DNA of 64,000 nt from a virus: positions 33,425 to 97,424 of the IMG/VR virus record IMGVR_UViG_3300024344_003321. The stretch is one strand, 5' to 3'. Shown here in pieces: positions 3,385 through 19,558 of the stretch; the first letter of the stretch is position 1, and every line of letters starts with the position of its first letter. Both the position numbers and the translations under genes were made by a program. The notes under the pieces were generated by a model, which did no database searches, was not told where the DNA came from, and was given only the letters and a program-made list of their open reading frames with translations.

Positions 3385-4120
3385 AAATCAACCATTAGGA
3401 GAAACATACGCTTGTTTACAGGGTGAGGGTAAATATATGGGTATTCCTCATATTTTGATACGAGTCACTGGATGTCGGCTAAGATGTCAATTTTCAGATT
3501 CGTTTTGTGATACACCGTACGCTTCGTGGACACCTGAAAAAGGTAAATATACTTTAAATGATGTTGTTGAATTTTATGAAAATAATAAACATATAAGCCA
3601 CACCATGATAACGGGGGGCGGGCCAACATTACACGCTGAATTGTTAAAAGAGTTATGCATTATAGGTAAGACATATAACCATACAATTACAATAGAAACA
3701 GAAGGTTCGGAGTTTGTTCAAACTGTGGCTGATTGTATTTCACTATCACCGAAATTAAGTAATTCAACACCACAGCCGGGTTCTTGGATGGAATATGCCA
3801 ATAGAGCAGTCACTAAAAAGGATAAACAGCAACATGAAAAGTGGAGATGTAATTATAAAGCTATGAAACAATTAATTACAAAACATCCAGATTATCAGTT
3901 AAAACCTGTTATATCAAATGAAAAAGATTTAGATGAAGTAAAAGAGTTACAACATATATTAGATATACCGAACAATAAAGTTTGGTTAATGCCTGAGGGT
4001 TTGGTAGAAGAACAATTAAATGAACGAAGGAGATGGTTGATGGAATTGTGTACACAAAATGGATACAATTATACAGATAGATTACACATAATAGCTTATG
4101 GAGATACACGCGGGGTATGA
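3368..4120 (+). CDS. queE: 7-carboxy-7-deazaguanine synthase (radical SAM)
   Basis: [14 protein letters not shown]...CDT, ITGGGP, IETEG, SLSPK, LMPEG, RLHI motifs. Confidence 0.92.
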
Positions 4121-4758
4121 AAATATTACAAAAATTAGGGTATGCCAATGGTAATATACCATTGACAGGTGAAGAAAAACAAGAAATGATTAGAGAAGCA
4201 GCTGAACACTATGGTCGGTATATGAATGCTTTACGAATCGATTGGAGAAACGACCCAAATTCATCTGATACTCCTATGAGAGTTGCGAAGGCCTTTGTTA
4301 ATGATTTGGCTGAGGGTTGTTATAACGAAGAACCTAAGGTAACAGCATTCGATAATTTAGATAAATATGATGGTATGGTATTTCAAGGTAACATTACAGT
4401 AAATTCATTTTGTTCACATCATCATTTACCGTTTGTAGGTGTAGCTCATGTAGCTTATATTCCAAGTATTGATGGTAAAATAATTGGGTTAAGTAAATTA
4501 AATAGAATTGTTGAACATTATGCAAGACGACCTCAAGTACAGGAAAATTTGACAATGCAAATTCATAACCACATCGATTCTGTATGTGATGGTAATTTAG
4601 GTGTAGCAGTGATGGTATCAGCCAATCACATGTGTGCTTGCGTTCGTGGTGTTAGACATGATGCTACAATGAAAACATCTAAATTGAGTAAGGAGTTTTT
4701 AAACGGTGAGAGCAGGTCAAGCTCAGAATTTTATAGTTTTATTAACGGATTAAAATAG
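4117..4758 (+). CDS. folE: GTP cyclohydrolase I
   Basis: [38 protein letters not shown]. Confidence 0.95.
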
Positions 4759-4766
4759 GATAATAT

Positions 4767-6110
4767 ATGATAGATTTACCATTACCTGAAGGGGTAAAAA
4801 TAAAAGATTGGTACCCTGTGTTTGGTAACAAAACTGTTAGGTGTAAGAAATTTAATAGGAGGACATGTTGGGAAAAATCAGATTTTCAAAAATGGTTGGT
4901 AGCATTAGGTAGGGGGCATGTTATAAACCCATTGATTTATGTTCATATTGATAGTTGTGTAAATTCTTGTTTAAGAGAAGGTAAACTTGATGATGTAAAA
5001 TATTTTGAGGATTATAAAAAACAAGGTTATGATTATATTACCCTCGAAGGTGGTAATAGGCATGATTCTACTGAGAAAATATATGAGGTAACTCCTGAAT
5101 TCCATAATAAAAGAATTAATATAGCATTAGTTGATGGTATAGACAGAGAAGAAATGCACGAGCTTTATTTGAATTTAGCAAGTGGTAAATCTCCAAATGA
5201 CCAAGAAAGACGAACTGGTATATATGGGGTAGTATCTGATGTTGTGCGAAAAGTATCTGAGCGATTAATCTCCATGTGGGATAAAGTTAATGGGATAACA
5301 CGACCAAGAATGAAGGATGATGAAATGGTGGCAATGATAATGAATTATGTTACTAATAATAGTTTCGGGACACACCCGCTTACAGGAAAAACTCGTACAG
5401 AAACCCTTGATTCTTTATATGAAACAAATGAATATAATTCTAAATTATTTAATTATGTTACTGAAAGTCTAAAAGCTTTTTGGGAGAGGGTGCGGGATGA
5501 CGAAATTGTCACTAAAAAACAACCAAAAGTAGTAATTTATTTATTAACGATATTATTTTCTCATTTTAAAAATAAATATAAAATAGTTAATGAGAAAAAA
5601 TTTATTAAAGAATTTTTTGATTATTTTAATGATATATATAATTTTGATTATAAGGAGGGTACAACAGAAACACGGGTTAGGTTAAAATTAAGTGGGACAC
5701 ATTATACATATAAGAATTTATTAGGTAATATGTTAAAAAACTTAGGTGTACTTAATGAGGTGGAATATTTAGTTAGGTCAGAACTTATACCAAAATTAGA
5801 AACTGCTAGTGTTATTAAACCAATTAATATGGAAGAATTTACATTTAAACACCGTAAAGAATATATAGGATTGCATAAATTTGACAAGCATGGTAATATA
5901 TATGTCAAAGTTAGAACTAATAATCCAAAGTTAGATTGGTTTCCTGGGCAACCAGAGTTTACAGATATTAGTTTAACGGAATCATTTTCAAATAAATATG
6001 AATTAGACCATATTATTCCTAAATCAAAAAATGGGCCTACTTCAATAGAAAATGCAGAATTAACATCTAAAGAGTATAACAGAAAAAAATATAATATAGA
6101 GGTAAAATGA
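4767..6110 (+). CDS. DUF262/ParB-like plus C-terminal HNH nuclease (GmrSD-like architecture)
   Basis: N-terminal FNRRTCW...LGRG..INPL, EGGNR (DGQQR-like), YLNLASG; C-terminal ELDHIIPKSKNG..SIENA...YNRKK HNH. Confidence 0.65.
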   Translation: MIDLPLPEGVKIKDWYPVFGNKTVRCKKFNRRTCWEKSDFQKWLVALGRGHVINPLIYVHIDSCVNSCLREGKLDDVKYFEDYKKQGYDYITLEGGNRHDSTEKIYEVTPEFHNKRINIALVDGIDREEMHELYLNLASGKSPNDQERRTGIYGVVSDVVRKVSERLISMWDKVNGITRPRMKDDEMVAMIMNYVTNNSFGTHPLTGKTRTETLDSLYETNEYNSKLFNYVTESLKAFWERVRDDEIVTKKQPKVVIYLLTILFSHFKNKYKIVNEKKFIKEFFDYFNDIYNFDYKEGTTETRVRLKLSGTHYTYKNLLGNMLKNLGVLNEVEYLVRSELIPKLETASVIKPINMEEFTFKHRKEYIGLHKFDKHGNIYVKVRTNNPKLDWFPGQPEFTDISLTESFSNKYELDHIIPKSKNGPTSIENAELTSKEYNRKKYNIEVK

Positions 6111-6454
6111 AAACAAACATAATAGTTACATTACAAGTTGAGGGAGTACATAATTGGCCAAACGCTAAGAATGTATTTCCAGAAGTGGCTTTTTTATCGA
6201 GAGCACATAGGCATATATTTCATATAACAGCTAAAAAAAGAGTAAATCACGATGATAGGGATGTTGAATTTATCATGTTCAAACGGGATATATTAGATTA
6301 TATGAAAAATAAATATTGGAGAGAGGTCATACGAGCTTATGACTTTAAATCAAAAAGTTGTGAAATGATAGCTAAAGAAATAGTCAATCGATTTAATTTA
6401 GAATATTGCTCAGTATTTGAAGATAACGAAAATGGAGCTGAGGTCTATGTCTAA
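6107..6454 (+). CDS. dpdL: QueD-like T-fold protein, DpdL-type (predicted CDG decarboxylase)
   Basis: LSRAHRHIF (LxxxHRHxF in place of QueD CxxxHGH), DRDVEF, SCEMIA, EDNENG; second QueD-like gene in a dpdA cluster. Confidence 0.7.
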   Translation: MKTNIIVTLQVEGVHNWPNAKNVFPEVAFLSRAHRHIFHITAKKRVNHDDRDVEFIMFKRDILDYMKNKYWREVIRAYDFKSKSCEMIAKEIVNRFNLEYCSVFEDNENGAEVYV

Positions 6455-6854
6455 TAGAAAATATTTACCAACATTAGCTGAATTAGTGGATAGATTATCG
6501 ATTATCCAATTAAAGGAAGTTTTTATTGTAGAACATAAAGATGAATATGCAAAAGAGATAGCTGCTATTGTCCATGATATTGATGTGATATTAGATGATG
6601 AGAATGTAAAGTTAAGTGGCAAAGATGTTAGAGCTATTATAGTGTTATCGCAAATGAATTTACATATATGGCATAATGAAACACAATATCGTGCAGGAAC
6701 AGGTGATGGGAATCTCGGATTAACACATGGACTAAATGGTATCAGAAATACTGCAAAGAATATAATACAGGATAATATTGGTGGTAGGAAAGATTATAAA
6801 ATTGATTGTATTGCTGCAGAATTTAAAGATTGGGAGATAAGCTGGAGTGAGTAA
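6447..6854 (+). CDS. Helical protein of unknown function (DUF4254/DUF6165-like)
   Basis: TLAELVDRLSIIQLK...NLHIWHNE; start moved to ATG 6447, overlapping the previous stop. Confidence 0.5.
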   Translation: MSNRKYLPTLAELVDRLSIIQLKEVFIVEHKDEYAKEIAAIVHDIDVILDDENVKLSGKDVRAIIVLSQMNLHIWHNETQYRAGTGDGNLGLTHGLNGIRNTAKNIIQDNIGGRKDYKIDCIAAEFKDWEISWSE

Positions 6855-7593
6855 AGTTTTAGTTATAGGTGACAGCTGTAGAGATATTTTTATATATGGG
6901 GATATAGAAAGAGTTTCACCTGAAGCTCCAATTCCTGTATTTAAACCAACGCATGAATCTGAAAATGATGGTATGTCGGCAAATGTAGTTAAGAACTTAG
7001 AGGCATTAGGGTGTACAGCTGAGATATTGACAAATGAAAACGATATAAAAAAGATTAGGTATGTCCATACAGCATCAAATCAAATGGTTCTCCGAGTTGA
7101 TGAACATGATTATTGCAGAAGGATACATGAACAAGAGCTTAAGTATGTCAATGATTGGGCTGATACTTTTGATGCAATCATAATATCAGATTATTGTAAA
7201 GGGTTTTTAACTGAGGATGACATAGAATTTATATGTTCTAAGTCAGATAATGTTTTCATTGATACTAAAAAATTGTTAGGTGATTGGATTATTAACGCAA
7301 AATTTATAAAAATAAATGATTTGGAGCATAAAAAAAATTATGAGCGGATACCAAATTATCCACACCTCAATGATAAATTAATTGTTACTCGTGGTGGTAA
7401 TGGATGTGATTATAAAAATACGAATTATCCAGTCCCAGAGGTATCAGTAAAAGATGTATCTGGTGCAGGTGATACATTTTTATCTGGGTTAGTATCTGAA
7501 TATATTAAAACAAAGGATATCGTCCAATCGATAAAATTTGCACAAAAATGTACAACTGCAGTAGTACAAAAACATGGAGTTTCAACTATATGA
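6847..7593 (+). CDS. HldE/RfaE-type heptose-7-phosphate kinase domain (PfkB family)
   Basis: LVIGD, RVSPEAPIPV, ANV..NL, LRVD, ISDYCKG, DVSGAGDTF. Confidence 0.85.
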   Translation: MSKVLVIGDSCRDIFIYGDIERVSPEAPIPVFKPTHESENDGMSANVVKNLEALGCTAEILTNENDIKKIRYVHTASNQMVLRVDEHDYCRRIHEQELKYVNDWADTFDAIIISDYCKGFLTEDDIEFICSKSDNVFIDTKKLLGDWIINAKFIKINDLEHKKNYERIPNYPHLNDKLIVTRGGNGCDYKNTNYPVPEVSVKDVSGAGDTFLSGLVSEYIKTKDIVQSIKFAQKCTTAVVQKHGVSTI

Positions 7594-7883
7594 TAATATA
7601 TGTGGATATTGATGGTACAATCTGTCATACTGAAAATTCGGATTATGATAATTCAAAGCCAAGATATAATCAAATTTTAAAAATAAATGAATTATATAGT
7701 GATGGACATGAAATAGTATATTGGACTGCTCGTGGGGGCACGACTGGTATAGATTGGAGTAAACATACAAAAAAACAGATAGATGAATGGGGCTGTAAAT
7801 ATACACGGATAGAAACGCAGAAAAAACCATCATTTGATTTGTTTATAGATGATAAATCAAAACGAATAGAGGAGTTAGCTTGA
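7590..7883 (+). CDS. Small HAD-family phosphatase
   Basis: YVDIDGTIC, WTARG, KP..DLFIDDK; ATG 7590 overlaps the upstream stop. Confidence 0.8.
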   Translation: MIIYVDIDGTICHTENSDYDNSKPRYNQILKINELYSDGHEIVYWTARGGTTGIDWSKHTKKQIDEWGCKYTRIETQKKPSFDLFIDDKSKRIEELA

Positions 7884-8257
7884 GTCATAAAATAAAACCA
7901 ACAGTATGTGAGGGGTGCACAGTCCCAAAAGGTTGGGGAGAAGAGCTTATCATAGAAAATAATGAAATGTATTGTGGTAAGATATTGAAATTTAAAAAAG
8001 GGTGTAAGTTTTCAATGCATTACCATCTAATTAAGGATGAAACTTGGTATGTCCAAGAAGGTGAATTTAGATATAGATGGATTGATACTGAAACTGCAGA
8101 ACTACATGGCATTAAACTTAAAGAAGGTGATGTAGTTAGACAACGAATCGGGCAACCACATCAATTGATAGCTGAAACAGATGGAACTATATTTGAAGTT
8201 TCAACACAGCATTTTGATGATGACAGCTACAGAATTTTACCGGGAGATAGTCAGTGA
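7880..8257 (+). CDS. Cupin, sugar-phosphate isomerase-like
   Basis: VPKGWGEE, SMHYHLIKDETWYV, PHQL, EVST. Confidence 0.8.
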   Translation: MSHKIKPTVCEGCTVPKGWGEELIIENNEMYCGKILKFKKGCKFSMHYHLIKDETWYVQEGEFRYRWIDTETAELHGIKLKEGDVVRQRIGQPHQLIAETDGTIFEVSTQHFDDDSYRILPGDSQ

Positions 8258-8643
8258 TGAGAATTTGGACAAACGGTTGTTTTGATGTGTTGCATAGAGG
8301 ACATATAGAATTATTTAAATATGCTAGGTCGCTGGGAGATGAATTGATAGTAGGGGTGGATACAGATAGTAAGGTCAAAAAAGATAAAGGAGTAGATAGA
8401 CCATTCAATACTTTGGCTGATAGGATGGCAGTTTTAAATTCCCTTATTTATGTGGATAAAGTGATTCCATTTGATACCACAGATGAATTAAAAGATACAA
8501 TAAAATGGCTGAAACCACATATTATGGTTATAGGTTCTGATTGGAAAGGTAAGGATGTGATTGGAAGACGGTATGCCGAAAAGGTAATATTTTTTGATAG
8601 AATTAGTGGATATTCAACAACTATGATTTTGGAGAATAAATGA
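8254..8643 (+). CDS. HldE/RfaE domain II-type sugar-1-phosphate nucleotidyltransferase
   Basis: NGCFDVLHRGH (HxGH), GVDTD..V...KG..RP, GSDW, YSTT. Confidence 0.88.
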   Translation: MMRIWTNGCFDVLHRGHIELFKYARSLGDELIVGVDTDSKVKKDKGVDRPFNTLADRMAVLNSLIYVDKVIPFDTTDELKDTIKWLKPHIMVIGSDWKGKDVIGRRYAEKVIFFDRISGYSTTMILENK

Positions 8644-9647
8644 GTAAAATAATTTATTTACCAGTTGAACATCCGGGTGGGGCAGACGATGTTAGGAATA
8701 ATAGCACATACGATACATATATAACAGATTATTTAACTCAGAATGATAAGGAATATATTAGGATATATCCAAATATTCCACACCCAACAAGTTTAAAGGC
8801 TGGAAGTTTTCTTGATGCAGAGTTTACTATTAGATTTAAGAGTGCACAACTCGCAGAAATAGCAAGATTATATCGTGATGATGTGATTGTTTCTGGTGAT
8901 ATAATATGGAGTGCTGATTTGTGGCACCCAGGTATTGAAAGTATTGCTTACATGAATTATTTTGCTAAGAAGGATGTTAAAATTAGAGGTATGTTACATG
9001 CCGGTAGCTTCACTGATACGGATTTTGTACGGGATTTAGAGAGGTGGGCTAAAAACTTTGAGGATATAGTTTTTGATATATCAGATAAAATTTATGTTGG
9101 TAGTGAATTTATTAAAAATGATGTTATTAAGAAGAGGATAGTTGACCCAAATAAAATGCAAGTTACTGGGTTCCCTCTCGATATAGATAAATTAAGTAAA
9201 TTTCATAACAATAATAAGGAAGATATTGTTTTATTTAGTGCAAGGAATGTAGATGAAAAGCAGCCTTGGTTATTTGAAGAATTATCTAAAAGATTAAAAG
9301 GTAAAGCTAAATTCATAAATACATTAGAGCATAATTTTAGTAAAGAAGAATATTATGAATTGTTATCTAAGTCAAAGATTATAGTGAGTTATGCTTTACA
9401 AGAAAATTTTGGAGTATCAGTACAAGAAGCTGCATATTTAAATTGTGTGCCTGTTCTACCTAATAGGTTAGTTTATCCAGAATTTTTTAGTAAAAAGCAT
9501 TTATATAATACTTTTGAGGAAAGTGTTTCTATGGTAGAACATATTTTAAATAATTGGAATTTTACTGATGTGCATTGGCCAATAGAACAGATTGGCGTGA
9601 GTTGTAATTCAAATAAAAATATAATGGAGGAATGGTTTAATGCGTAA
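8640..9647 (+). CDS. GT-B (GT4-like) glycosyltransferase
   Basis: LHAGSF, FSARNVDEKQP, QENFGVSVQEA..CVPVLP; overlaps the dpdA start. Confidence 0.8.
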   Translation: MSKIIYLPVEHPGGADDVRNNSTYDTYITDYLTQNDKEYIRIYPNIPHPTSLKAGSFLDAEFTIRFKSAQLAEIARLYRDDVIVSGDIIWSADLWHPGIESIAYMNYFAKKDVKIRGMLHAGSFTDTDFVRDLERWAKNFEDIVFDISDKIYVGSEFIKNDVIKKRIVDPNKMQVTGFPLDIDKLSKFHNNNKEDIVLFSARNVDEKQPWLFEELSKRLKGKAKFINTLEHNFSKEEYYELLSKSKIIVSYALQENFGVSVQEAAYLNCVPVLPNRLVYPEFFSKKHLYNTFEESVSMVEHILNNWNFTDVHWPIEQIGVSCNSNKNIMEEWFNA

Positions 9648-10839
9648 ATTTATTTATTTCCCATCATTTTCTGCAGGAGAATATGGTGATAAATTAAAAA
9701 AAGATTATAAGTTTAAAAATGGGCACTCGTGCCGATTTTATTCGGATGATTTTCCTGAACAATATAGACATAATCAAGTTTTAATAACAGCGGGAGCTCA
9801 TTTTAAAACTGATGGTTATCGTAATTTGTTAGGACTATCTAAGGATAATTTAGTGATGGGTGACTCTGGTGGATATCAAATAGCATCTGGTGCTATGAAG
9901 TGGGATATAAAACATAGAGATAGAATTTTTAAATGGTTAGAAGAAAATGCTGATGTTGCTATGAATTTAGATATTCCACCAAGATTGAAATATCAAGGTA
10001 AATATAGAGAATGTTTAGATATTAGCATTGATAATTTTAAATATTTTGATAAACATCAGGATGGTAGCACTAAATTTCTAAATGTAGTACAGGGTGATGA
10101 TGATGTTACATACCAGAATTGGTATGACCAAGTAAAAGATTTTGAATTTTCTGGTTGGGGTGTAGGTGGTGCCGGTGGGAGTATGTATCGGTTCATGTCA
10201 GGTGTTTTAGCATTAATAAATGGTAAAGAACACCTAAAACCTAATAATGAATATTTTCATATTTTGGGAACATCGAAGATTAGAGATTTTTTAATGTTAA
10301 TACAATTGCAGAAGTCACTTGAAGAGGTTGGGAGTAAAGTAACTGTTACTACGGATAGTTCGTCACCAGATAGAGCTGTAGTATTTGGGACATTCTATAC
10401 TAATTTTAGTATTAAGCGGGGTACATTTGAGTCGGTTAATTTTCCCAATGCTAAGCATCAAGGGGATATAATTGATGATTTTTTAACACTTGAAAATATG
10501 AATTGGCCAAACTTGACTAAATTTGATGATAATTTATCAAAATTTGTAGGTTGGAAAGACACAGCAGAATGGAATTCTGATTGTACAATTGGTATGAGAT
10601 TACATAATTTTTTTGTATTCAAGGATGCAATACAGCAGATAACTGATTATGTATATGGTCACAATTATATTTTAGAACAAGTTGTGGATAAAGAAGTATA
10701 TACTGTTTTAATGTCAATTGATGAAATGGTCAAAAGTGATGACCCGAAGCGTGTATTTGAGAAATATAAACCATTGTATTCTAAATTTAGTAATATGAAA
10801 AAAACAATAATAAATAACAGTGCGGGGTTTTGGGAATGA
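9640..10839 (+). CDS. dpdA: DNA-guanine transglycosylase (TGT fold)
   Basis: GDSGGYQI, MNLDIPP, NVVQG, GVGG, HILG, TTDSSS motifs; located in a folE/queD/queE cluster. Confidence 0.85.
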   Translation: MRKFIYFPSFSAGEYGDKLKKDYKFKNGHSCRFYSDDFPEQYRHNQVLITAGAHFKTDGYRNLLGLSKDNLVMGDSGGYQIASGAMKWDIKHRDRIFKWLEENADVAMNLDIPPRLKYQGKYRECLDISIDNFKYFDKHQDGSTKFLNVVQGDDDVTYQNWYDQVKDFEFSGWGVGGAGGSMYRFMSGVLALINGKEHLKPNNEYFHILGTSKIRDFLMLIQLQKSLEEVGSKVTVTTDSSSPDRAVVFGTFYTNFSIKRGTFESVNFPNAKHQGDIIDDFLTLENMNWPNLTKFDDNLSKFVGWKDTAEWNSDCTIGMRLHNFFVFKDAIQQITDYVYGHNYILEQVVDKEVYTVLMSIDEMVKSDDPKRVFEKYKPLYSKFSNMKKTIINNSAGFWE

Positions 10840-10916: not shown

Positions 10917-11639
10917 ATGGATAAAAATAAAATAGATAGATTTATAACAAAATATTCTTTAGCTGGTAACGCTAATTCAGTTAAATGGAAATTTACTGAT
11001 AATAGGTTAGTAACATCATTTGTAACTGAGGATAGAAGTTTATTGGGTCAAGTAACAGTTGATAATTTTGACTTTGAGGAATGTGAATTGGGGGTTTATG
11101 CAACAGACCAATTGCAAAAATTATTAAGTGTACTTAGTGACAGCGTAAAACTATCTTTAAATAAATTTGGTGATAAGCCACTTTCATTAGGAATTAAAAA
11201 TGATTTTGTCGCAGTGGACTTTGTGTTATCAGATTTATCGGTTATACCAGAACCACCTAAAATGAAAAAAATACCAGACTTTAAAACTAAAATTAAAATG
11301 GATACTGCTTTTATATCTGCATTTATTAAAGGTAAATCTGCATTACCAGATTCAACATCATTTACAGTAACAGGTACCAATGATGGTGATTGTAAAATAG
11401 TTATAGGGTATTCCAATACAACTACAAATAGAGTTAGCTTAGATGTAGAATGTTCAAACTGTGATTTAGATGAAAATGTATCATTTAATGCAGATTTATT
11501 TAAGGAAATTTTAAGTGCAAATAAAGAATGTACTGATGCTGTTCTTGAAGTTTCAAATGATGGTCTTGCTAAGATAAATTTTAAAATAGACGATTTTGAT
11601 GCAGTTTATTATATGGTAGCTAACCAAGAGGATGAGTAA
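10917..11639 (+). CDS. DNA polymerase sliding clamp (gp45/PCNA-like)
   Basis: ~240 aa, beta-rich; LGVYATDQL, FNADLFKEIL, GLAKINF...YYMVA; directly upstream of the clamp loader; RBS favours ATG 10917. Confidence 0.8.
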   Translation: MDKNKIDRFITKYSLAGNANSVKWKFTDNRLVTSFVTEDRSLLGQVTVDNFDFEECELGVYATDQLQKLLSVLSDSVKLSLNKFGDKPLSLGIKNDFVAVDFVLSDLSVIPEPPKMKKIPDFKTKIKMDTAFISAFIKGKSALPDSTSFTVTGTNDGDCKIVIGYSNTTTNRVSLDVECSNCDLDENVSFNADLFKEILSANKECTDAVLEVSNDGLAKINFKIDDFDAVYYMVANQEDE

Positions 11640-12550
11640 TGAGTGTAACGCATTCACTTTGGGTTGAAAAGTATAGGCCTAATAAATTAGATAATTATAT
11701 AGGTAATGAACATTTAAAGACAAAAGTGCAGCGGTATATAGATGACCAAGATGTCCCTCACCTATTATTATATGGTAGAGCAGGTACAGGCAAAACTACT
11801 TTGGCTAAATTAGTCGTTAAGAATATTGAATGTGATTATCTTTATATAAATGCATCAGATGAAAATAATATAGATACTGTACGGTTTAAAATAAGAGCAT
11901 TTGCATCAACTGTTGGGTTTAAGGATTTAAAAGTTGTGATATTAGATGAGTGCGACTATTTAACGCCAAATGCACAGGCTGCATTAAGAAATGTAATGGA
12001 AACATTTTCAAAACATTGTAGGTTCATATTAACTTGTAATTATGTTGAACGGGTCATCGACCCAATACAATCAAGATGCCAATCATATAAGATTGTACCA
12101 CCTAAAAAATCAGATGTTGCTAGGCACATAGTAACTATATTAAACGCTGAAAAAGTCACCTATGATTTAGATGATGTAGCTACTTTGATAACTGCCGGGT
12201 ACCCTGATATTAGACGAGTGTTAAACTCTATGCAAAGACAGGTAGTCGATGGAAAATTGAAGGTGGATGTTGATACTATAATACAAAATGACTATAAAAT
12301 GAAATTGTTAGAATTATTAACTACTAATGCTAGTTTAAATGATATACGACAATTAATTGCCAACAATTCTATTAGTGATTATTCTGAATTATATAGGTTA
12401 TTATATGATGAGGTTGATAATTATTCTAAGGGGAATGTTGCAGAATGTATATTAGCAATAGCAGAAGGTCAATATCAAGACGTGAATGTGGTTGATAAGG
12501 AAATTAATTTTATGAGTACTATATTAAAAATACAGGAAAAAATAAGATGA
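11639..12550 (+). CDS. Clamp loader AAA+ subunit (gp44/RFC-like)
   Basis: LWVEKYRP, GRAGTGKTT, INASD, LDECD, AQAALR, SRC. Confidence 0.95.
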   Translation: MSVTHSLWVEKYRPNKLDNYIGNEHLKTKVQRYIDDQDVPHLLLYGRAGTGKTTLAKLVVKNIECDYLYINASDENNIDTVRFKIRAFASTVGFKDLKVVILDECDYLTPNAQAALRNVMETFSKHCRFILTCNYVERVIDPIQSRCQSYKIVPPKKSDVARHIVTILNAEKVTYDLDDVATLITAGYPDIRRVLNSMQRQVVDGKLKVDVDTIIQNDYKMKLLELLTTNASLNDIRQLIANNSISDYSELYRLLYDEVDNYSKGNVAECILAIAEGQYQDVNVVDKEINFMSTILKIQEKIR

Positions 12551-12953: not shown

Positions 12954-13136
12954 ATGCCGATATACACTTTTAGATGTAAATGTGGAAATGAAAAAGACAT
13001 TATATGCAAGAGCTGTGATACAGAATTACGGATGTGTACTAAATGTGGATGTGGTATGAAGCGGGTAGTGAGTAAGGGTGGTTCATTTAAATTAAAGGGC
13101 AGTGGATTTTACGAAACTGACTATAAGGATAAATGA
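12954..13136 (+). CDS. FmdB-family zinc-ribbon protein
   Basis: MPIYTFRCKCG...CTKCG...FKLKGSGFYETDY. Confidence 0.8.
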   Translation: MPIYTFRCKCGNEKDIICKSCDTELRMCTKCGCGMKRVVSKGGSFKLKGSGFYETDYKDK

Positions 13137-13564
13137 TGACAATATTTAATTGGATAGACCAGATATTGGTTAATAAAAAATCATGGGAAAAGTTTGATGA
13201 ATCTGACCATAAAACTTTCAGTCCATTTATCATAAATAGATGGTTATCAATGGATGTGGATTTTCTTGAAATAGTTAATTTTTTTCAAAAATATTCTATT
13301 GGATTGTTAAAACCTAAAGAAGTATATAAATGGTATTGTGATGTATTGCCAAAAGGTAAGAGATTTAATAAATATATCAAGGGGAAAAAACAAGTGAAAT
13401 ATAATAACGATTTGATAGAAATTACATGCAAACATTTTGAAACAAGTAAAAAAGAATGTATGGAGTATATTGAATTAATGAATAAAGAACAATTAACATC
13501 ATTATTAGAATTGTTTGGTAAAAATCCAAAAGAAATTAAAACATTATTAAAGGGCAAAAAGTGA
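13133..13564 (+). CDS. Clamp loader small subunit (gp62-like)
   Basis: FSPFIINRWLSMD...VLPKGKRFNKYIK pattern and position near gp44/gp45 homologues. Confidence 0.65.
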   Translation: MMTIFNWIDQILVNKKSWEKFDESDHKTFSPFIINRWLSMDVDFLEIVNFFQKYSIGLLKPKEVYKWYCDVLPKGKRFNKYIKGKKQVKYNNDLIEITCKHFETSKKECMEYIELMNKEQLTSLLELFGKNPKEIKTLLKGKK

Positions 13565-14001
13565 AACCAAAAATAAAAGTTACAAATGAAAAAGGCGAAG
13601 ATGTTACTATGGACCGACTAAATATCATAGGGCAAAATGGAAATAGTGGGTTACATTATGACAAGATAGAAGATGCTATTTCATTTATAACAAAAAAATA
13701 TCCAGAAACCACAAAAATGTTTCAAGATACACAATTTGAGCAATGGGAGTTATTCTGTAAAAAACAAAAAGATTATGGGCCAAAAAATATATCAGTTGGA
13801 ACTAATTTAGAAACGGATGAAGAAGTTAAATTGGCTCTAACGGGATTGTGGTTTAGAATGAATGACAAAATGCAAAGATTTCAACAAATAGTTATGAATA
13901 ATCAAGAACCTGAAAATGAATCTTTAATGGATACATTTACAGATTTAGCTAATTACGCAATAATAGCACAATTAGTACAAGAAAAAATATGGGGGAAATA
14001 A
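13561..14001 (+). CDS. DUF1599 / nucleotide-modification-associated domain 1 protein
   Basis: KKQKDYG..NI, RMNDKMQR, ESLMDTFTDLANYAII. Confidence 0.75.
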   Translation: MKPKIKVTNEKGEDVTMDRLNIIGQNGNSGLHYDKIEDAISFITKKYPETTKMFQDTQFEQWELFCKKQKDYGPKNISVGTNLETDEEVKLALTGLWFRMNDKMQRFQQIVMNNQEPENESLMDTFTDLANYAIIAQLVQEKIWGK

Positions 14002-14198
14002 TGGATGAAGAAACAAGGTATCACACAGGTGATGTCGTTACAATAAATAATATAGATTGGATTATTGAATCTGTTACAATGAGATTTGGTAAGATAATGA
14101 ATTACGCGTTAAAATACAAAGATGAAAATGGTGATAGGGAATTTGTTAATATTGAAACGGGTTCACTTGAAACATTAATTAAATTAGGAGAGAGTTAA
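13989..14198 (+). CDS. Hypothetical protein
   Basis: Packed ORF; no recognised motif. Confidence 0.5.
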   Translation: MGEIMDEETRYHTGDVVTINNIDWIIESVTMRFGKIMNYALKYKDENGDREFVNIETGSLETLIKLGES

Positions 14199-15031
14199 TG
14201 AAAGATATGTTCGCATATGATGCGGTAGTATATAAAATGAGGCAGTATTTTAGAGAAGCAAAAGGATTTGTCGAAGTACCGGCACAATCCCGACAGTCAA
14301 TATTAGCAGCGTGTGAGGACCCAAAAACAATCAGCCAGTATGTTTTTAGTGGAACGAATTGGCCACTACCACAAACAGGACAAATGTGGTTGGAACACGA
14401 GCTGTTGAAAAACCCAACGATAAAGGGTGTATTTTGTGTAACTACATCATACAGAAATGAGCCAAATCCAATACCAGGGAGACACGATAAAATATTTCCA
14501 ATGTTTGAATTTGAATCACATGGTAATATGGATGATTTGATAACCATTGAAGAAGAATTATTATCATTTTTAGGGTTTGGTAGTGTGTTAGATTTCAGCA
14601 CTGTAAAATATGAAGATGCTTCTACAAAATATGGTGTATCTGAATTAGATGTTGATGAAGAAGAAAAACTATGTAAGGATTTCAGTACTTGTACATTCTT
14701 AACAGACTTTCCTCAAAGAACACATCCATTTTGGAATATGAAACAAAATGAAGTGGATAAAAATCTATTTAATAAAGTAGATGTCATAATGCATGGAATG
14801 GAAACAATAGGAAGTGCTGAACGGAGTACAAATGTTGAAGAAATGCGACATCAATTTCATACAATTTCAGATGGTGAATATGCGGGATTGTTATTTAATC
14901 ATTTTGGAAAAGAACGAGTTGAAGCTGAATTAGAGGAATATTTATCCCATGATATGTTTCCAAGATTTGGAGCAGGAATTGGCGTTACTCGTATGGTACG
15001 GGCAATGGAATTATCAGGATTATTAAATTAA
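14198..15031 (+). CDS. Class IIb (Asn/Asp/Lys) aminoacyl-tRNA synthetase-like catalytic domain lacking the anticodon-binding domain
   Basis: Motif 1 MRQYF..KGFVEV, LPQTGQ, motif 2 YRNE...RH..FPMFEFE, ETIGSAER, motif 3 PRFGAGIGVTRM; only 277 aa. Confidence 0.85.
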   Translation: MKDMFAYDAVVYKMRQYFREAKGFVEVPAQSRQSILAACEDPKTISQYVFSGTNWPLPQTGQMWLEHELLKNPTIKGVFCVTTSYRNEPNPIPGRHDKIFPMFEFESHGNMDDLITIEEELLSFLGFGSVLDFSTVKYEDASTKYGVSELDVDEEEKLCKDFSTCTFLTDFPQRTHPFWNMKQNEVDKNLFNKVDVIMHGMETIGSAERSTNVEEMRHQFHTISDGEYAGLLFNHFGKERVEAELEEYLSHDMFPRFGAGIGVTRMVRAMELSGLLN

Positions 15032-15050
15032 ACAATAGGAGAATAAGGTT

Positions 15051-15260
15051 ATGGCACATTATTACGAAGCAAATGTAGTATTTGAGGAAACGGTTGATAC
15101 AAAAAATGGACCGAAAACTAAAAAGACAAAAGAAAACTATTTGGTAGAAGGTGATTCAGTTACTTATGTTGAAGCAAAAGTAAATGAACATCTACAAGAT
15201 AGTGTTCACCCATTTGAAGTAAAATCAGTTAGAGAATCTAAAATAGTAGAAGTTGTTTGA
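15051..15260 (+). CDS. DUF4494-like protein
   Basis: YEANV.FE...KKTKENYLVEGDSVTYVEAKV...FEVKSVRESKIVEV; AGGAG upstream. Confidence 0.65.
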   Translation: MAHYYEANVVFEETVDTKNGPKTKKTKENYLVEGDSVTYVEAKVNEHLQDSVHPFEVKSVRESKIVEVV

Positions 15261-15625
15261 AATTCCTAACACGAAAACTCGTTACACCAGCAGACTTAAA
15301 CCCTCGTGGAACTTTACATGGGGGTATTCTGCTGAAATGGATTGACGAAGAAGCAGGTGTACACGCAGCATTAGAACTCAATACAGGTTTATTAGTCACT
15401 AAATATATGTCAGAGATAGAATTTGTATCTCCAGTGTTACCAGGCGATATAGTTGAAATTGGAATGGAAACTTTAAAGGTTGGGACAACATCAATTACAT
15501 TAAAATGCGATGTTAGGTCTAAACAAATGGATGCTGTTATATTACGAATTGAAAAGATTATATTTGTCAGAGTGAATAAATATGGTCAACCAAAAGCACA
15601 CGGTGCGAGTTGGGATGAAGATTAA
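15257..15625 (+). CDS. Hotdog-fold acyl-CoA thioesterase (YciA-like)
   Basis: PADLNPRGTLHGGILLKWIDE, F.SPV..GD, VGTTSI, FVRV. Confidence 0.85.
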   Translation: MKFLTRKLVTPADLNPRGTLHGGILLKWIDEEAGVHAALELNTGLLVTKYMSEIEFVSPVLPGDIVEIGMETLKVGTTSITLKCDVRSKQMDAVILRIEKIIFVRVNKYGQPKAHGASWDED

Positions 15626-15627
15626 AT

Positions 15628-15711
15628 TGGAGTATGGTGGAATTGGCAGACACGCTATCCTGTTTAGATGGTGATATTTATATCGTGGGGGTTCGATTCC
15701 TTCTGCTCCAG
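15628..15711 (+). tRNA. Atypical tRNA, anticodon GTT (Asn), long variable arm, no encoded CCA
   Basis: Acceptor TGGAGTA/TGCTCCA; D arm GTG-GAATTGGCAGA-CAC; anticodon stem CTATC/GATGG with loop CTGTTTA; variable hairpin GATA-TTTA-TATC; T arm GGGGG-TTCGATT-CCTTC; discriminator G. Confidence 0.8.
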
Positions 15712-15737
15712 CAAAAATAAAAAAAAGAGGTTATAGT

Positions 15738-16598
15738 ATGAGTAGAATATCATATTCACAATTATCATTATATACTAATTGCCCTAAGCAATGGCAATTA
15801 AGGTATATAGACAAAATAACAGAATCCGAATCAAATATATATTTAGTATTCGGTACTGCAATGCATGAAACATTACAACATTATCTTGATGTGATGTACA
15901 AACATACAGTCAAAAAGGCCGATGAAATAAACTTACCAAAATTCTTACAAAAGGCTTTAATAACAGAATTTAAAAAAGCTGAAGAAGCTGATGGCAAACT
16001 ACCTTGCACGAAGGAAGAACTATATGAGTTTTTTCAAGATGGTTGTGATATACTTGATTTTTTCAAAAAACGGCGAAGTGAGTATTTTAGTAAAAACGGG
16101 TGGGAGTTAGTTGGTATAGAAAAACCAATAAATGTCGAGCTAAAAGGGAAATTGAGAATAGTTGGTTTTCTTGATGTGGTGATGTATGATAAAATAGCTA
16201 ATAGAATAAAGATAATTGATATTAAAACATCTACAATGGGTTGGAACAAGTGGCAGAAAAAAGATGAGAACAAAACAGCACAATTATTATTATATAAACA
16301 ATTTTATGCCAAACAATACGGATTTCCGATAGAAAATATAGATGTTGAATATTTTATAGTAAAACGGAAATTATATGAAAATGCACAATTTCCGCAAAAA
16401 AGAGTTCAAAAGTTTTCACCTGCAAGTGGGACGGTATCAATGAATAAAGTTGCTAAAAAAATGAAAATTTTTATGGATGATGCATTTGATGATGATGGTC
16501 AGCATATAATAAAAGAATATCAAACTAACCCATCTAAAAAGGCGTGTAGGTGGTGTGAATTTAATAAAACAGAACATTGTTCGGATGGTGTAAAATGA
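15738..16598 (+). CDS. PD-(D/E)XK exonuclease, RecB/Cas4-like with Fe-S cysteines
   Basis: SYSQ...CP, GTAMHE, GFLDVV, IIDIKTS, QLLLY, CRWCEF...C. Confidence 0.85.
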   Translation: MSRISYSQLSLYTNCPKQWQLRYIDKITESESNIYLVFGTAMHETLQHYLDVMYKHTVKKADEINLPKFLQKALITEFKKAEEADGKLPCTKEELYEFFQDGCDILDFFKKRRSEYFSKNGWELVGIEKPINVELKGKLRIVGFLDVVMYDKIANRIKIIDIKTSTMGWNKWQKKDENKTAQLLLYKQFYAKQYGFPIENIDVEYFIVKRKLYENAQFPQKRVQKFSPASGTVSMNKVAKKMKIFMDDAFDDDGQHIIKEYQTNPSKKACRWCEFNKTEHCSDGVK

Positions 16599-17509
16599 AA
16601 TGTTTAGTAACAGGTGGTGCAGGATTCATAGGAAGTAATCTTGTAGATAGACTAATTAAAGACAATCATGAAGTAATAATAATAGATGATTTGTCAACTG
16701 GTAAAGAAAAAAATATAAACCCAAAAGCTGAGTTTATGAAGGTTGATATATCAGATAATGATGATATGTTGAGTGGAGCACTTAAAGGTGTTGATGTTGT
16801 ATTTCATTTAGCAGCCAAGGCTCGTGTTCAACCATCAATTGAAAATCCAATTGAATTTCATAATACAAATGTTAATGGAACACTTAATTTATTAAAGGCG
16901 TGTGTAGATAACAATGTCAAACGATTTGTATTTAGTTCATCATCATCTGTTTATGGTGATGTTGAAAAGTTACCAACACCTGAATATCATCCACTTGACC
17001 CAATAAGTCCATACGCATTACAGAAATTAATTGGCGAACAATATTGTAAATTATTTTCAGAACTATATGATATAGAAACTGTATGTTTAAGATATTTCAA
17101 TGTGTATGGTGATGGTATGGATTTGACTAGCACATATAAATTAGTTATACCAATATTTACAGAACAGATACAAAATGGCAAACCAATGACTATTAGAGGT
17201 GACGGTGAACAAAGACGAGATTTTACACATATCGATGATGTAGTTGAAGCAAATATATTAGCAGGCTTTAATTCAAAGATACCTATTTTCAAATGTAAAG
17301 GTGATACTTTTAATATTGGGAATGGTGATAATAGGTCAGTCAATCAAATTGCAGATTTACTTGGTGATAATAAAATCAATGTTGAACCTGTAATTGAACC
17401 AATAGAAACATTGGCTGATAATAGTAAAGCGTTTATGGTGTTGGGTTGGAAACCAAAATTAATGATAAACGATTGGATACAGAAATGGAAGAAGGAGATG
17501 GGTATATGA
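16595..17509 (+). CDS. NAD-dependent nucleotide-sugar epimerase/dehydratase
   Basis: VTGGAGFIGS, HLAA, SSSSVYG, SPYALQK (YxxxK), RYFNVYG, RDFTHIDD. Confidence 0.93.
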   Translation: MKCLVTGGAGFIGSNLVDRLIKDNHEVIIIDDLSTGKEKNINPKAEFMKVDISDNDDMLSGALKGVDVVFHLAAKARVQPSIENPIEFHNTNVNGTLNLLKACVDNNVKRFVFSSSSSVYGDVEKLPTPEYHPLDPISPYALQKLIGEQYCKLFSELYDIETVCLRYFNVYGDGMDLTSTYKLVIPIFTEQIQNGKPMTIRGDGEQRRDFTHIDDVVEANILAGFNSKIPIFKCKGDTFNIGNGDNRSVNQIADLLGDNKINVEPVIEPIETLADNSKAFMVLGWKPKLMINDWIQKWKKEMGI

Positions 17510-17907
17510 AAATTGGTATAGTTGGTAGTCGAATATATGAGAATAAAAAAAAGATAAAAGATTTTATATTTAAATTAAAACAAGAAAAGGGTGAGAATGT
17601 AATAATCGTAAGTGGTGGTTGTCCAGATGGTGCCGATAGGTATGCTAAGAAATACGCATTGGAATTTGGATTGCAGTATGAAGAATATCCACCATTTCAT
17701 GCACAGCATAATTTATATTGTGCATTACCTGAAACTTGTTATGGAAAGCAATATAGTGTTAGATATTTCTTTGCGAGGAATAAATTAATTGCTAAGAACA
17801 GTGATTATATAGTTGGTTTTATCCCAGAGGGTCATACTTCAAATGGTACAAATTCTACATTGAAGTATGCTCAGAAATTTGGAAAAAAAACTTTAATAAT
17901 TGATTAA
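17506..17907 (+). CDS. SLOG-family (DUF2493/YspA-like) protein
   Basis: IGIVGSR, IVSGGCPDGAD, ARNKLIA, GT..T. Confidence 0.75.
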   Translation: MKIGIVGSRIYENKKKIKDFIFKLKQEKGENVIIVSGGCPDGADRYAKKYALEFGLQYEEYPPFHAQHNLYCALPETCYGKQYSVRYFFARNKLIAKNSDYIVGFIPEGHTSNGTNSTLKYAQKFGKKTLIID

Positions 17908-17971
17908 AAAATCGTTGTTTAGTGTGCTTGTGTTATATATATATACATATATACTAAATTAGGAGTAGGTT

Positions 17972-18166
17972 ATGGATAAAATGAAACTCACCTCAGTTAA
18001 GATTTTAAAATCGTTATATGATAAATTTAAACTTAAAACGGTTAATAGTAAAATGACATTACAAAAAATTACAAATAGGTCTTTATATATGTATCTCAAT
18101 GATGCTAAATTTAATGATGATGTAAATACAATGGATAAGTTAATAGTAAGTGGTAGTAATCTATAA
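17972..18166 (+). CDS. Small putative ribbon-helix-helix DNA-binding protein
   Basis: LTSVKI strand followed by two helices; AGGAG RBS; AT-alternating tract upstream. Confidence 0.5.
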   Translation: MDKMKLTSVKILKSLYDKFKLKTVNSKMTLQKITNRSLYMYLNDAKFNDDVNTMDKLIVSGSNL

Positions 18167-19558
18167 ATGGGAAAACAGATGAATAAAAAGAAAAAAATAC
18201 TATTTTTATCGGATGATATGCGAATGTTTAGTGGTGTTGCAGTCGTAAGTAAAGAATTGATTTTAGGGACAGTAGATACATTTGATTGGGTTCAAGTTGG
18301 GGCTGCAATAAAACATCCGGAAGAAAATAAAAAAATAGATATGTCGGATGTCATACGGGATATAACAGGTGTTCGAGATGCATCAGTAATGATTTATCCA
18401 ACAAGTGGTTATGGTAACCCAAATATGTTGCGTGAATTAATAAAAATAGAACAACCTGATGCTATTTTACACTTTACAGACCCTAGGTTTTGGATATGGT
18501 TATATGAAATGGAACATGAAGTTAGAACCAACATTCCTATATTTTATTATAATATATGGGACGATTTGCCAGACCCACATTATAATAGAGATTATTACAG
18601 GAGTTCTGATTTATTGATGTCAATATCAAAACAAACTTATGGTATTAATAAGCGAGTATTATCTGAGTATGGTTATAAAGATTGGCAACTTAAATATGTA
18701 CCACATGGTATCGACCATAAAAAATTTAATATAGTTGATAAAAATGACACAAAATTTAAAAAATTCCAAAATAAATTTGGGATAGATAAATACAAGTTTA
18801 AAGTATTATACTTGAATAGAAATATAAGACGAAAAAATCCAGGTGATGTGATTTTAGCGTATAAACACTTTATCGATTCATTACCAAAGGAAAAACGGGA
18901 TGAATGTGTTTTAATGTTTCACACTAACCCCGTTGATGACAATGGGACTGATTTAAAGGCAGTGCATACGGCATTAGCTAAGGACTGTAATGTTATTTTT
19001 ACTATGGATTATGACGGTACGGCATTCGATGACCAACAGATGAATTTTATATATAACTCGGCTGATGTGTATATAAATTTAGCATCAAATGAAGGGTTTG
19101 GATTAGGTTCGGCCGAATCATTGATGACAGGAACACCAATTGTTGTAAATGTTACAGGTGGGTTACAAGACCAATGTGGGTTCAAGGATGATAGTGGAAA
19201 TTATCTTACAGAAGATGATTATATATCATTGGGTTCAAATCATAGAGGCCAATATAAAGAACACGGTGAATGGGTAAAACCTGTGTTTCCAAGTAATATA
19301 AGTTTACAAGGGTCACCACTAACACCTTACATATTTGACGATAGAGCAAGTTATGAAGATGCTGGTGATGCATTGAAATACTGGTACGATGTTGGGTCAG
19401 ATAAACGAGGTCAATATGGTAAGTTGGGCCGTGAATATGTGTTGGATAATAGAATAGGTATGTCTGCAGAAAATATGTGTGGTAGGTTAGTTGAATCGAT
19501 AGAGCATTTATTTGAAAATTGGGTACCAAAAGATAAATTTATTTTGGAGGTTGTATGA
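18167..19558 (+). CDS. Glycosyltransferase, GT4-like
   Basis: VPHGID, NRNIRRK, SNEGFGLG..ESL..GTP. Confidence 0.9.
   Translation: MGKQMNKKKKILFLSDDMRMFSGVAVVSKELILGTVDTFDWVQVGAAIKHPEENKKIDMSDVIRDITGVRDASVMIYPTSGYGNPNMLRELIKIEQPDAILHFTDPRFWIWLYEMEHEVRTNIPIFYYNIWDDLPDPHYNRDYYRSSDLLMSISKQTYGINKRVLSEYGYKDWQLKYVPHGIDHKKFNIVDKNDTKFKKFQNKFGIDKYKFKVLYLNRNIRRKNPGDVILAYKHFIDSLPKEKRDECVLMFHTNPVDDNGTDLKAVHTALAKDCNVIFTMDYDGTAFDDQQMNFIYNSADVYINLASNEGFGLGSAESLMTGTPIVVNVTGGLQDQCGFKDDSGNYLTEDDYISLGSNHRGQYKEHGEWVKPVFPSNISLQGSPLTPYIFDDRASYEDAGDALKYWYDVGSDKRGQYGKLGREYVLDNRIGMSAENMCGRLVESIEHLFENWVPKDKFILEVV

Follow-up and report, generated by a model that had tools for sequence, protein, structure and literature searches.

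EpmA/GenX and HisZ are class II aminoacyl-tRNA synthetase cores that have lost the anticodon-binding domain and do non-translational jobs. The asparagine synthetases AsnA and AS-AR (3P8T/1NNH) are catalytic-only class IIb paralogues of about 280–330 amino acids (aa), which use ATP and an Asx substrate without tRNA. tRNAs, for their part, can carry activated amino acids for metabolism, as in the transamidosome of ND-AspRS and GatCAB and with Glu-tRNA in haem synthesis, and textbooks present de novo pyrimidine synthesis as a single six-step route that does not vary. Here, we analyzed a locus of a marine phage. It lies in a 64,000-nucleotide (nt) stretch of DNA, hereafter “the window”, which corresponds to bases 33425–97424 of the 97,424-bp virus record IMGVR_UViG_3300024344_003321 (32.5% G+C), and it consists of a gene for a 277-aa class IIb core without an anticodon-binding domain, which we call X (14198–15031, plus strand), and an atypical tRNA gene with a GUU anticodon and a long variable arm (15628–15711, plus strand), 596 nt beyond the X stop codon.

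Two patterns carry our reading of this locus. Across genomes, X goes together with PyrD–PyrE–PyrF and occupies the place of the missing CarB, PyrB, and PyrC; across viruses, the long-arm tRNA(GUU) is obligately linked to X, and the linkage runs one way. We infer from sequence comparisons that X, as an ATP-using metabolic enzyme derived from an asparaginyl-tRNA synthetase and not a charger of tRNA for translation, supplies dihydroorotate, or its immediate precursor, to PyrD–PyrE–PyrF. With roughly even confidence, we hold that this is a pyrimidine-precursor enzyme not described before and that the tRNA is its captive helper. Full-text literature searches returned no description of a function for the family, whose sole literature mention is a gene-table entry, “tRNA ligase”, T4-GC 194, with nothing on function (PMC3037559).

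The core was recognized by Pfam tRNA-synt_2 (class II D/K/N core; residues 9–270, E 5e-19), with motifs 2 and 3 in place. As the original prediction had stated, there is no room for an N-terminal OB-fold anticodon-binding domain, the match beginning as early as residue 9 (of 277), and members of the family are ~270–300 aa long throughout. Searching with an AlphaFold2 model (mean predicted local distance difference test 96.4), Foldseek returned structures of asparaginyl-tRNA synthetase (AsnRS) as top matches (1X54, 9SH8, 2XGT/2XTI, 8H53; E about 1e-19), the nearest being AsnRS bound to Asn-AMP or its analogues, and the matches listed to rank 49 were AsnRS, AspRS, and LysRS. The family profile gave the same order, i.e., AsnRS (1e-14), archaeal AspRS (3.5e-14), AS-AR 3P8T (1.3e-7), and EpmA 3A5Z (7.6e-5).

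Alignments to AsnRS, AspRS, and LysRS placed the Asx-type pocket residues alongside the two motifs in X. The CE(G) motif is common to X (ACEDP) and AsnRS (DCEGAGE), and the RH of the motif 2 loop, the Arg of GSxxR (GSAER in X), and motif 3 are the same in both. The pocket Glu of AsnRS (SGQLxxE) is found in X (PQTGQMWLE), i.e., the Glu of QxxQxxxE is kept, where AspRS has Lys-Gln (QSPQLFKQ, with the aspartate-binding Lys) and LysRS reads RIAPELYLK. Throughout the X family, the motif 2 Arg, the motif 3 Arg, and the acidic Mg ligands are invariant or nearly so, and the ATP-, Mg-, and amino-acid-binding residues as a whole are nearly invariant. Most likely, then, the substrates of X are ATP and an asparagine-like compound, from which it makes an adenylate. 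Identity between X and AsnRS is only about 20%: the curated asnS model (TIGR00457, cut-off 342.6 bits) gave no match to X at E ≤ 0.01, the genX model gave none, and the only matches in that scan were weak ones to LysRS/AspRS (22–36 bits). X falls in phrog_29758 (“unknown function”, E 3e-96), within a family of >8,000 clusters at 90% identity that spans marine phages, Coxiellaceae and other Gammaproteobacteria, Chlamydiota, Dependentiae, Patescibacteria, and DPANN archaea. The net charge of X is uninformative on RNA binding, canonical synthetase cores being equally acidic. One long relative (P0280, 498 aa) has Pfam PF14528 beside the synthetase core, which may be an inserted element.

Next, we evaluated cellular relatives of X by scanning one genome per prokaryotic species with a 10-row X alignment, which gave 430 relatives; the best 80 of these were read. 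These 80 are 55–67% identical to the window X and come from Coxiellaceae and other Gammaproteobacteria, Chlamydiota, Dependentiae, Patescibacteria, Bdellovibrionota, Saprospiraceae, and DPANN archaea, several of them on megabase contigs. Genes for a phosphoribosyltransferase (PRTase) and orotidine monophosphate (OMP) decarboxylase, with or without dihydroorotate dehydrogenase (DHODH), flank X in 33 of the 80 loci. One gammaproteobacterial gene (L215), 66% identical to the window X, is followed by PRTase (pyrE) and OMP decarboxylase (pyrF). X also occurs fused to these enzymes, in at least nine PyrD–X fusion clusters (584–661 aa, 51–54% identical to the window X) and one X–PyrF fusion; overall, the fusions are 46–54% identical to the window protein. 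By comparison, a tRNA-Asn was found near X in none of the 80 cellular loci.

This pyrimidine context coincides with a lack of the early pyrimidine enzymes. With models for PyrB and PyrC that score in all 14 control genomes, PyrC and PyrB were both missing from 8 of 10 X genomes from several phyla, most of the cellular genomes being metagenome-assembled so that absence is uncertain, and PyrD and PyrF were both present in all five tested of those PyrB/PyrC-less X genomes. We then considered the 86 genomes of the order holding one of the ten. There, 18 genomes had X, 53 had PyrC, and 53 had PyrB, with no genome combining X with either of the two (Fisher 7e-10; 1e-13 among PyrF-positive genomes), although these genomes are related to each other and such p-values, like that for AsnB below, overstate independence. 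PyrF was present in 18/18 X genomes of the order, and most genomes without X and without PyrB/PyrC were also without PyrF. CarB was missing in 13 of the 15 X genomes tested. A full AsnRS co-occurs with X in two of five genomes, which indicates that X is not the housekeeping AsnRS, and AsnB exceeded its cut-off in 12/18 X genomes versus 22/68 others (p 0.014).

In a tree of 179 rows including AsnRS, AspRS, and LysRS, the X sequences grouped tightly (99% support), and a long branch set them apart from these synthetases. The window X sits in a supported 76-row clade together with 21 pyr-linked cellular rows. tRNA-linked phage X genes fall into at least three clades, namely a 35-row clade of T4-like cyanophages, a 7-row clade (one row of which has too little downstream sequence to score), and the window X with L007 and L006, and these interleave with cellular pyr-linked and tRNA-less phage clades; the nearest 15 further relatives of the window X have no tRNA. 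No alignment column separates tRNA-linked from tRNA-less X. Taken together, the interleaving and the lack of any distinguishing residue indicate that X with and without the tRNA is the same enzyme.

The tRNA itself departs from the canonical form. ARAGORN reported a single tRNA in the window (15628–15712, anticodon GTT, 85 nt, long variable arm), and the gene at 15628–15711 is the only tRNA of the whole record. Its acceptor stem has 7 bp with U1–A72 and G73 (CCA is not encoded), its D stem has 3 bp, the D arm being nearly the same as in bacterial tRNA-Leu, its anticodon loop reads CUGUUUA (G34 U35 U36, U37, A38), and its variable region of 14 nt comprises a 4–5 bp stem and its loop, followed by a canonical T arm and T loop; the predicted body is class II and Leu-like. 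GUU, G73, and U1–A72 are features of canonical bacterial tRNA-Asn, whereas a class I body with a short variable loop and a purine at position 37 (the t6A site) are not found here. In tRNAs that read ANN codons, A37 is usual and U37 abnormal. In a narrow scan with Rfam RF00005, the tRNA scored 36.7 bits, above the gathering score of 29; a scan of the whole window at the gathering threshold reported no RNA family, the atypical tRNA being lost to speed filters. Across 12 homologues, 100% of cloverleaf cells were paired and compensatory changes occurred in 18/24 pairs, versus 2–4 pairs when partner columns were slid as a control, placing the cloverleaf far beyond chance.

The same features recur across the long-arm group. 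With the long-arm tRNA model R1, the window tRNA scored 89.6 bits, and the next-best matches of the model were tRNA-Leu genes of huge phages. Among 63 distinct copies, most of them found by a pattern that fixes the anticodon loop, the 1–72 pair was U–A in 51 and A–U in 9 and never G–C (60/60 weak), position 73 was G in 60/60, and the variable region ranged from 11 to 77 nt without conserved sequence. U37 was present in every long-arm copy of the set found through the enzyme, which is unbiased for the anticodon loop. G73, a GUU or GUC anticodon, and a weak 1–72 pair are features used by AspRS/AsnRS and bacterial GatCAB, the last of which needs the weak pair. Positions 34–36 and 38 of the GUU long-arm tRNAs, and of a related GUC family described below, copy canonical Asn/Asp loops, with only position 37 differing. 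Since these bases are conserved and X has no anticodon-binding domain, loading by host enzymes is favoured.

We measured the association of X and tRNA from both sides. At least 596 IMG/VR stretches encode an X relative, and the enzyme-found set comprised 85 loci (80 from IMG/VR and five phage records); the tRNA-found set, defined by a pattern of the D arm plus CTGTTTA, comprised at least 120 stretches, of which 79 were read. X lay directly upstream on the same strand in 71/79 tRNA-found loci (gap 0–373 nt), and the other eight have <380 nt of upstream sequence. Starting from the enzyme, a tRNA-Asn was present in 18/85 loci, 16 of them long-arm (3′, same strand, within about 1.05 kb) and two normal. 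The long-arm tRNA(GUU) is thus never seen without X, and X is usually seen without the tRNA. The co-occurrence across phage genomes suggested by the original prediction was therefore borne out from tRNA to enzyme and is weaker from enzyme to tRNA.

The arrangement of the two genes is often tight. In several cyanophage loci the long-arm tRNA begins at the X stop codon (gap 0), and in two loci (L021, 505–1393; L025, 5195–6083) a canonical 74-nt tRNA-Asn with loop CUGUUAA (A37) overlaps the last X codons. RNase P cleavage at such overlapping or abutting tRNAs would sever the X mRNA no later than at its stop codon. The Prochlorococcus myophages P-SSM2, P-SSM5, and P-SSM7 carry X homologues (48–56% identical, annotated “tRNA ligase”) with a similar tRNA ≤10 nt downstream. 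For P-SSM2 (NC_006883.2, L001), a tRNA-Asn (PSSM2_199) is annotated at 164094–164179, inside the coding sequence PSSM2_205; ARAGORN and model R1 place the only tRNA of the locus at 5786–5873 (about 162082–162169 of the record), after the “tRNA ligase” PSSM2_198, and the annotated coordinates look stale. In X-carrying huge phages (LR756501, LR756508, and three IMG/VR records) no long-arm tRNA was found, the best model matches being ordinary tRNA-Leu. Phage copies of X are mostly without any pyr partner. Some cyanophage loci have the order pyrD-like, X, tRNA or X, tRNA, pyrE, and in T4-like cyanophage contigs (L101, 4466–6151; L111, 7299–8263; L152, 3019–4673) a pyrE-like gene comes directly after the X–tRNA pair, or the pair is preceded by a weak DHODH-like match (E 6e-8), suggesting that the pyrimidine link persists in tRNA-carrying phages.

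How X might make a pyrimidine precursor can be outlined from its AsnRS-like pocket. We propose that X converts asparagine, CO2, and ATP to dihydroorotate, with the captive long-arm tRNA feeding activated asparagine to the reaction in phages; this full scheme is doubtful, and more so than the general reading of X as a pyrimidine-precursor enzyme. X would first make asparaginyl-adenylate, as AsnRS does. Aminoacyl adenylates react with CO2 to N-carboxyanhydrides, and the corresponding product of asparaginyl-adenylate could be attacked at its carbamate carbonyl by the side-chain amide nitrogen, closing the six-membered ureide ring and freeing the alpha-carboxylate, so that the net balance would be dihydroorotate = Asn + CO2 − H2O. 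The AsnRS adenylation geometry would be left unchanged, and carbamoyl-phosphate synthetase, aspartate transcarbamoylase, and dihydroorotase would all be bypassed. Such a route would account for the AsnRS-type pocket, for dispensable carbamoyl phosphate, and for the enrichment of AsnB, and a phage might carry X as a nucleotide-supply gene.

With less confidence, we regard the tRNA as a dedicated helper of asparagine identity and not as an ordinary decoding tRNA; its role is the weakest part of the proposal. Host AsnRS, or AspRS with GatCAB, would load it by way of the anticodon, G73, and the weak 1–72 pair. The loaded tRNA would hand pre-activated asparagine to X, whose active site appears built to hold Asn on A76, and U37 and the long arm may keep the tRNA out of translation.

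Several observations weigh against this explanation, beyond the uncertain absences and the relatedness of the genomes mentioned above. In one X genome (G011), PyrB and PyrC are both present. No tRNA-Asn lies within about 6 kb in 67/85 enzyme-found loci, so X works without the tRNA, and the failure to find a column specific to tRNA-linked X leaves no sign of an RNA-binding adaptation. The canonical T loop, acceptor stem, and anticodon mean that the tRNA could decode AAY codons, and as no AsnRS catalytic residue is lost from X, tRNA charging may be possible. Asparagine is only a putative substrate. No pyrD, pyrE, or pyrF was found in the whole 97,424-bp record, so the phage module would have to feed the pathway of its host, and hosts presumably have PyrB/PyrC. 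The missing early steps could also reflect symbionts that import dihydroorotate, in which case X would have another job; as further alternatives, X could cyclise imported N-carbamoyl-aspartate with ATP, or could use aspartate and urea.

Turning to explanations outside pyrimidine synthesis, the original prediction had proposed an orthogonal synthetase/tRNA pair, in which the anticodon-blind X recognises the long variable arm, for tailoring glycans, proteins, or DNA. In a broader form of this view, X would charge the long-arm tRNA by its acceptor end or variable arm, and the product would serve AAY translation or act as an aminoacyl donor in tailoring. The genomic linkage on which that proposal drew is real, and the complete AsnRS-type active site, the obligate position of the tRNA next to X, the normal tRNA-Asn abutting X in two loci, and the tRNA-Asn acceptor features (G73, U1–A72) all speak for it. 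A charging role for X nevertheless seems unlikely, because X in cells is fused to or clustered with pyr genes, has no tRNA-Asn nearby, and is excluded by PyrB/PyrC; because tRNA-linked and tRNA-less X interleave with no residue to tell them apart; because the tRNA keeps the bases (34–36, 38, 73) used by anticodon-reading AsnRS/AspRS, a conserved anticodon and position 38 being useless to an enzyme without an anticodon-binding domain; and because the two open reading frames (ORFs) between X and the tRNA are not conserved neighbors. To this can be added that most phage X genes have no tRNA, that a full AsnRS co-occurs with X in two of five genomes, and that the variable arm, at 11–77 nt, has no conserved sequence.

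Alternatively, the tRNA could be a decoding tRNA-Asn, either ordinary or serving to evade defence, that shares a mobile cassette with X but is functionally unconnected to it. The canonical parts of its cloverleaf would suit decoding, as would the composition of the phage (32.5% G+C, 6.6% Asn codons) and the position of X inside tRNA clusters of some T4-like phages. A further point in its favor comes from a sister family found by a pattern scan of viral contigs (at least 120 viral stretches, L300–L419), whose members share the Leu-like body, long arm, U37, and G73 and have a GUC anticodon, C38, and U1–A72 or A1–U72. These mostly occur without X: X lies upstream in only 3/83 testable loci, by which we rejected the GUC tRNA as a second obligate partner of X, and the neighbors are ordinary phage genes (PhoH, PD-(D/E)XK, HU-like). 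In 10 loci, however, the long-arm GUC tRNA occurs together with a normal tRNA-Asp, suggesting that the long-arm form is not a mere substitute. Overall, we judge a plain decoding role improbable given the obligate tie to X, recurring in at least three separate enzyme clades with X directly upstream wherever the tRNA-found loci hold enough sequence; given that this is the single tRNA of a 97-kb phage in which Asn codons are not the commonest; and given U37 and the GUC sister family.

The original prediction had offered asparagine synthetase as the simpler alternative, i.e., that X is of AsnA/AS-AR type and makes free Asn from Asp, ATP, and ammonia. The size of X as a catalytic-only class IIb paralogue fits AS-AR, and some relatives adjoin a GS II gene (L007), but this alternative did not hold up and is very unlikely: AsnA models (PF03590, TIGR00669) did not match X and the family profile missed AsnA, AS-AR matched far more weakly than AsnRS, X forms its own tight clade, its context and fusions are pyrD/E/F and not Asn metabolism, and AsnB is already there in 12/18 X genomes. 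It is likewise highly improbable that X is no enzyme but a regulatory or scaffold subunit of the adjacent PRTase or DHODH, much as the HisRS paralogue HisZ is to HisG, as its place beside a PRTase in many cellular loci and its fusion to PyrD could suggest, since the ligand-binding residues are nearly invariant, phage X mostly has no pyr partner to regulate, and a regulator would leave the missing PyrB, PyrC, and CarB unexplained.

In the window, X lies within a plus-strand gene run that begins with clamp-loader genes (11639–12550 and 13133–13564), followed by DUF1599, “nucleotide modification associated domain 1” (13561–14001), and, between this gene and X, a 69-aa ORF. Downstream of X come a 69-aa DUF4494-like ORF (15051–15260; PF14902 E 1.9e-9, C-terminal half of the model) and a 122-aa hotdog-fold thioesterase (4HBT, YciA-like; 15257–15625; PF03061 E 2.4e-14, NCBIfam YciA E 8e-11), whose stop codon is 2 nt from the tRNA. 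The order of DUF4494-like ORF, thioesterase, and sole tRNA with an Asn anticodon ~600 bp on was thus as originally read. The tRNA is followed by a PD-(D/E)XK nuclease (15738–16598) and, within 16577–19558, by an NAD-dependent epimerase/dehydratase, a SLOG/YspA-DprA-like 153-aa protein, and a GT1-family glycosyltransferase, all on the plus strand. Homologues of the DUF4494 and hotdog genes lie near X in one of 85 related loci each (L010 and L027, respectively), and we rejected both as parts of the system: judged from this conservation, the DUF4494-like ORF is a co-transcribed passenger, the hotdog gene is a passenger, and neither belongs to a conserved module. With DUF1599 on the 5′ side and the epimerase, SLOG, and glycosyltransferase genes on the 3′ side, the neighborhood may be a sugar or nucleotide-modification region. 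A megablast of the region against phage records gave no match.

A close phage relative offers a different neighborhood. In L007 (IMGVR_UViG_3300020477_001475, 4113–10105), X is 77% identical to the window X and stands in a run of DUF1599, a short GS II-like glutamine synthetase, a 155-aa ORF, X, a cytidylyltransferase-like gene, a tRNA, two Mom genes, and a PD-(D/E)XK gene. The tRNA-like gene has the anticodon loop UUGUCUC (GUC, U37, C38), and its variable arm is about 78 nt long. The run could be an amide-nitrogen or base-modification cassette: glutamine supply by GS II fits an amidation route, and the Mom genes also allow a base-modification role.

If dihydroorotate indeed comes from X and not by way of carbamoyl-phosphate synthetase, aspartate transcarbamoylase, and dihydroorotase, then symbionts are being wrongly scored as pyrimidine auxotrophs from their genomes, a single gene would let phages get around the feedback-controlled first steps of their hosts, and the synthetase fold would have acquired a chemistry new to it. 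Likewise, a tRNA gene that occurs only downstream of the gene for a metabolic enzyme would amount to a new use of tRNA, and the X–tRNA pair would offer a directly testable case of synthetase paralogues and tRNAs recruited outside translation.

Of the known systems, AsnRS is the closest to X: the fold is the same, as are motifs 2 and 3, the CE(G) and RH signatures, and the Glu and Arg that mark an Asn-type pocket. X differs in having no OB-fold domain, in its identity of about 20%, in the absence of an asnS match, in its own long-branch clade, and in being tied in cells to pyrD/E/F and excluded by PyrB/PyrC; X would thus work like AsnRS in the first half-reaction but falls outside AsnRS itself. 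By the same sequence criteria, X is not AsnA/AS-AR, EpmA, or HisZ. AS-AR and AsnA are farther from X than AsnRS is, and the context of X is pyrimidine and not asparagine synthesis; EpmA has a LysRS-type pocket that X does not have, and matches only distantly; and HisZ has lost the catalytic residues that X keeps. For the ring closure, the nearest counterpart is dethiobiotin synthetase BioD, which closes a ureido ring between two nitrogens with CO2 in an ATP-dependent reaction. BioD has an unrelated P-loop fold and a phosphoryl, not an adenylyl, intermediate, and serves as an analogy only. Finally, the transamidosome and Glu-tRNA in haem synthesis offer an analogy for the captive tRNA and its putative transfer of asparagine: those systems use ordinary cell tRNAs, whereas the tRNA described here is Leu-like, carries U37, and is tied to one enzyme gene.

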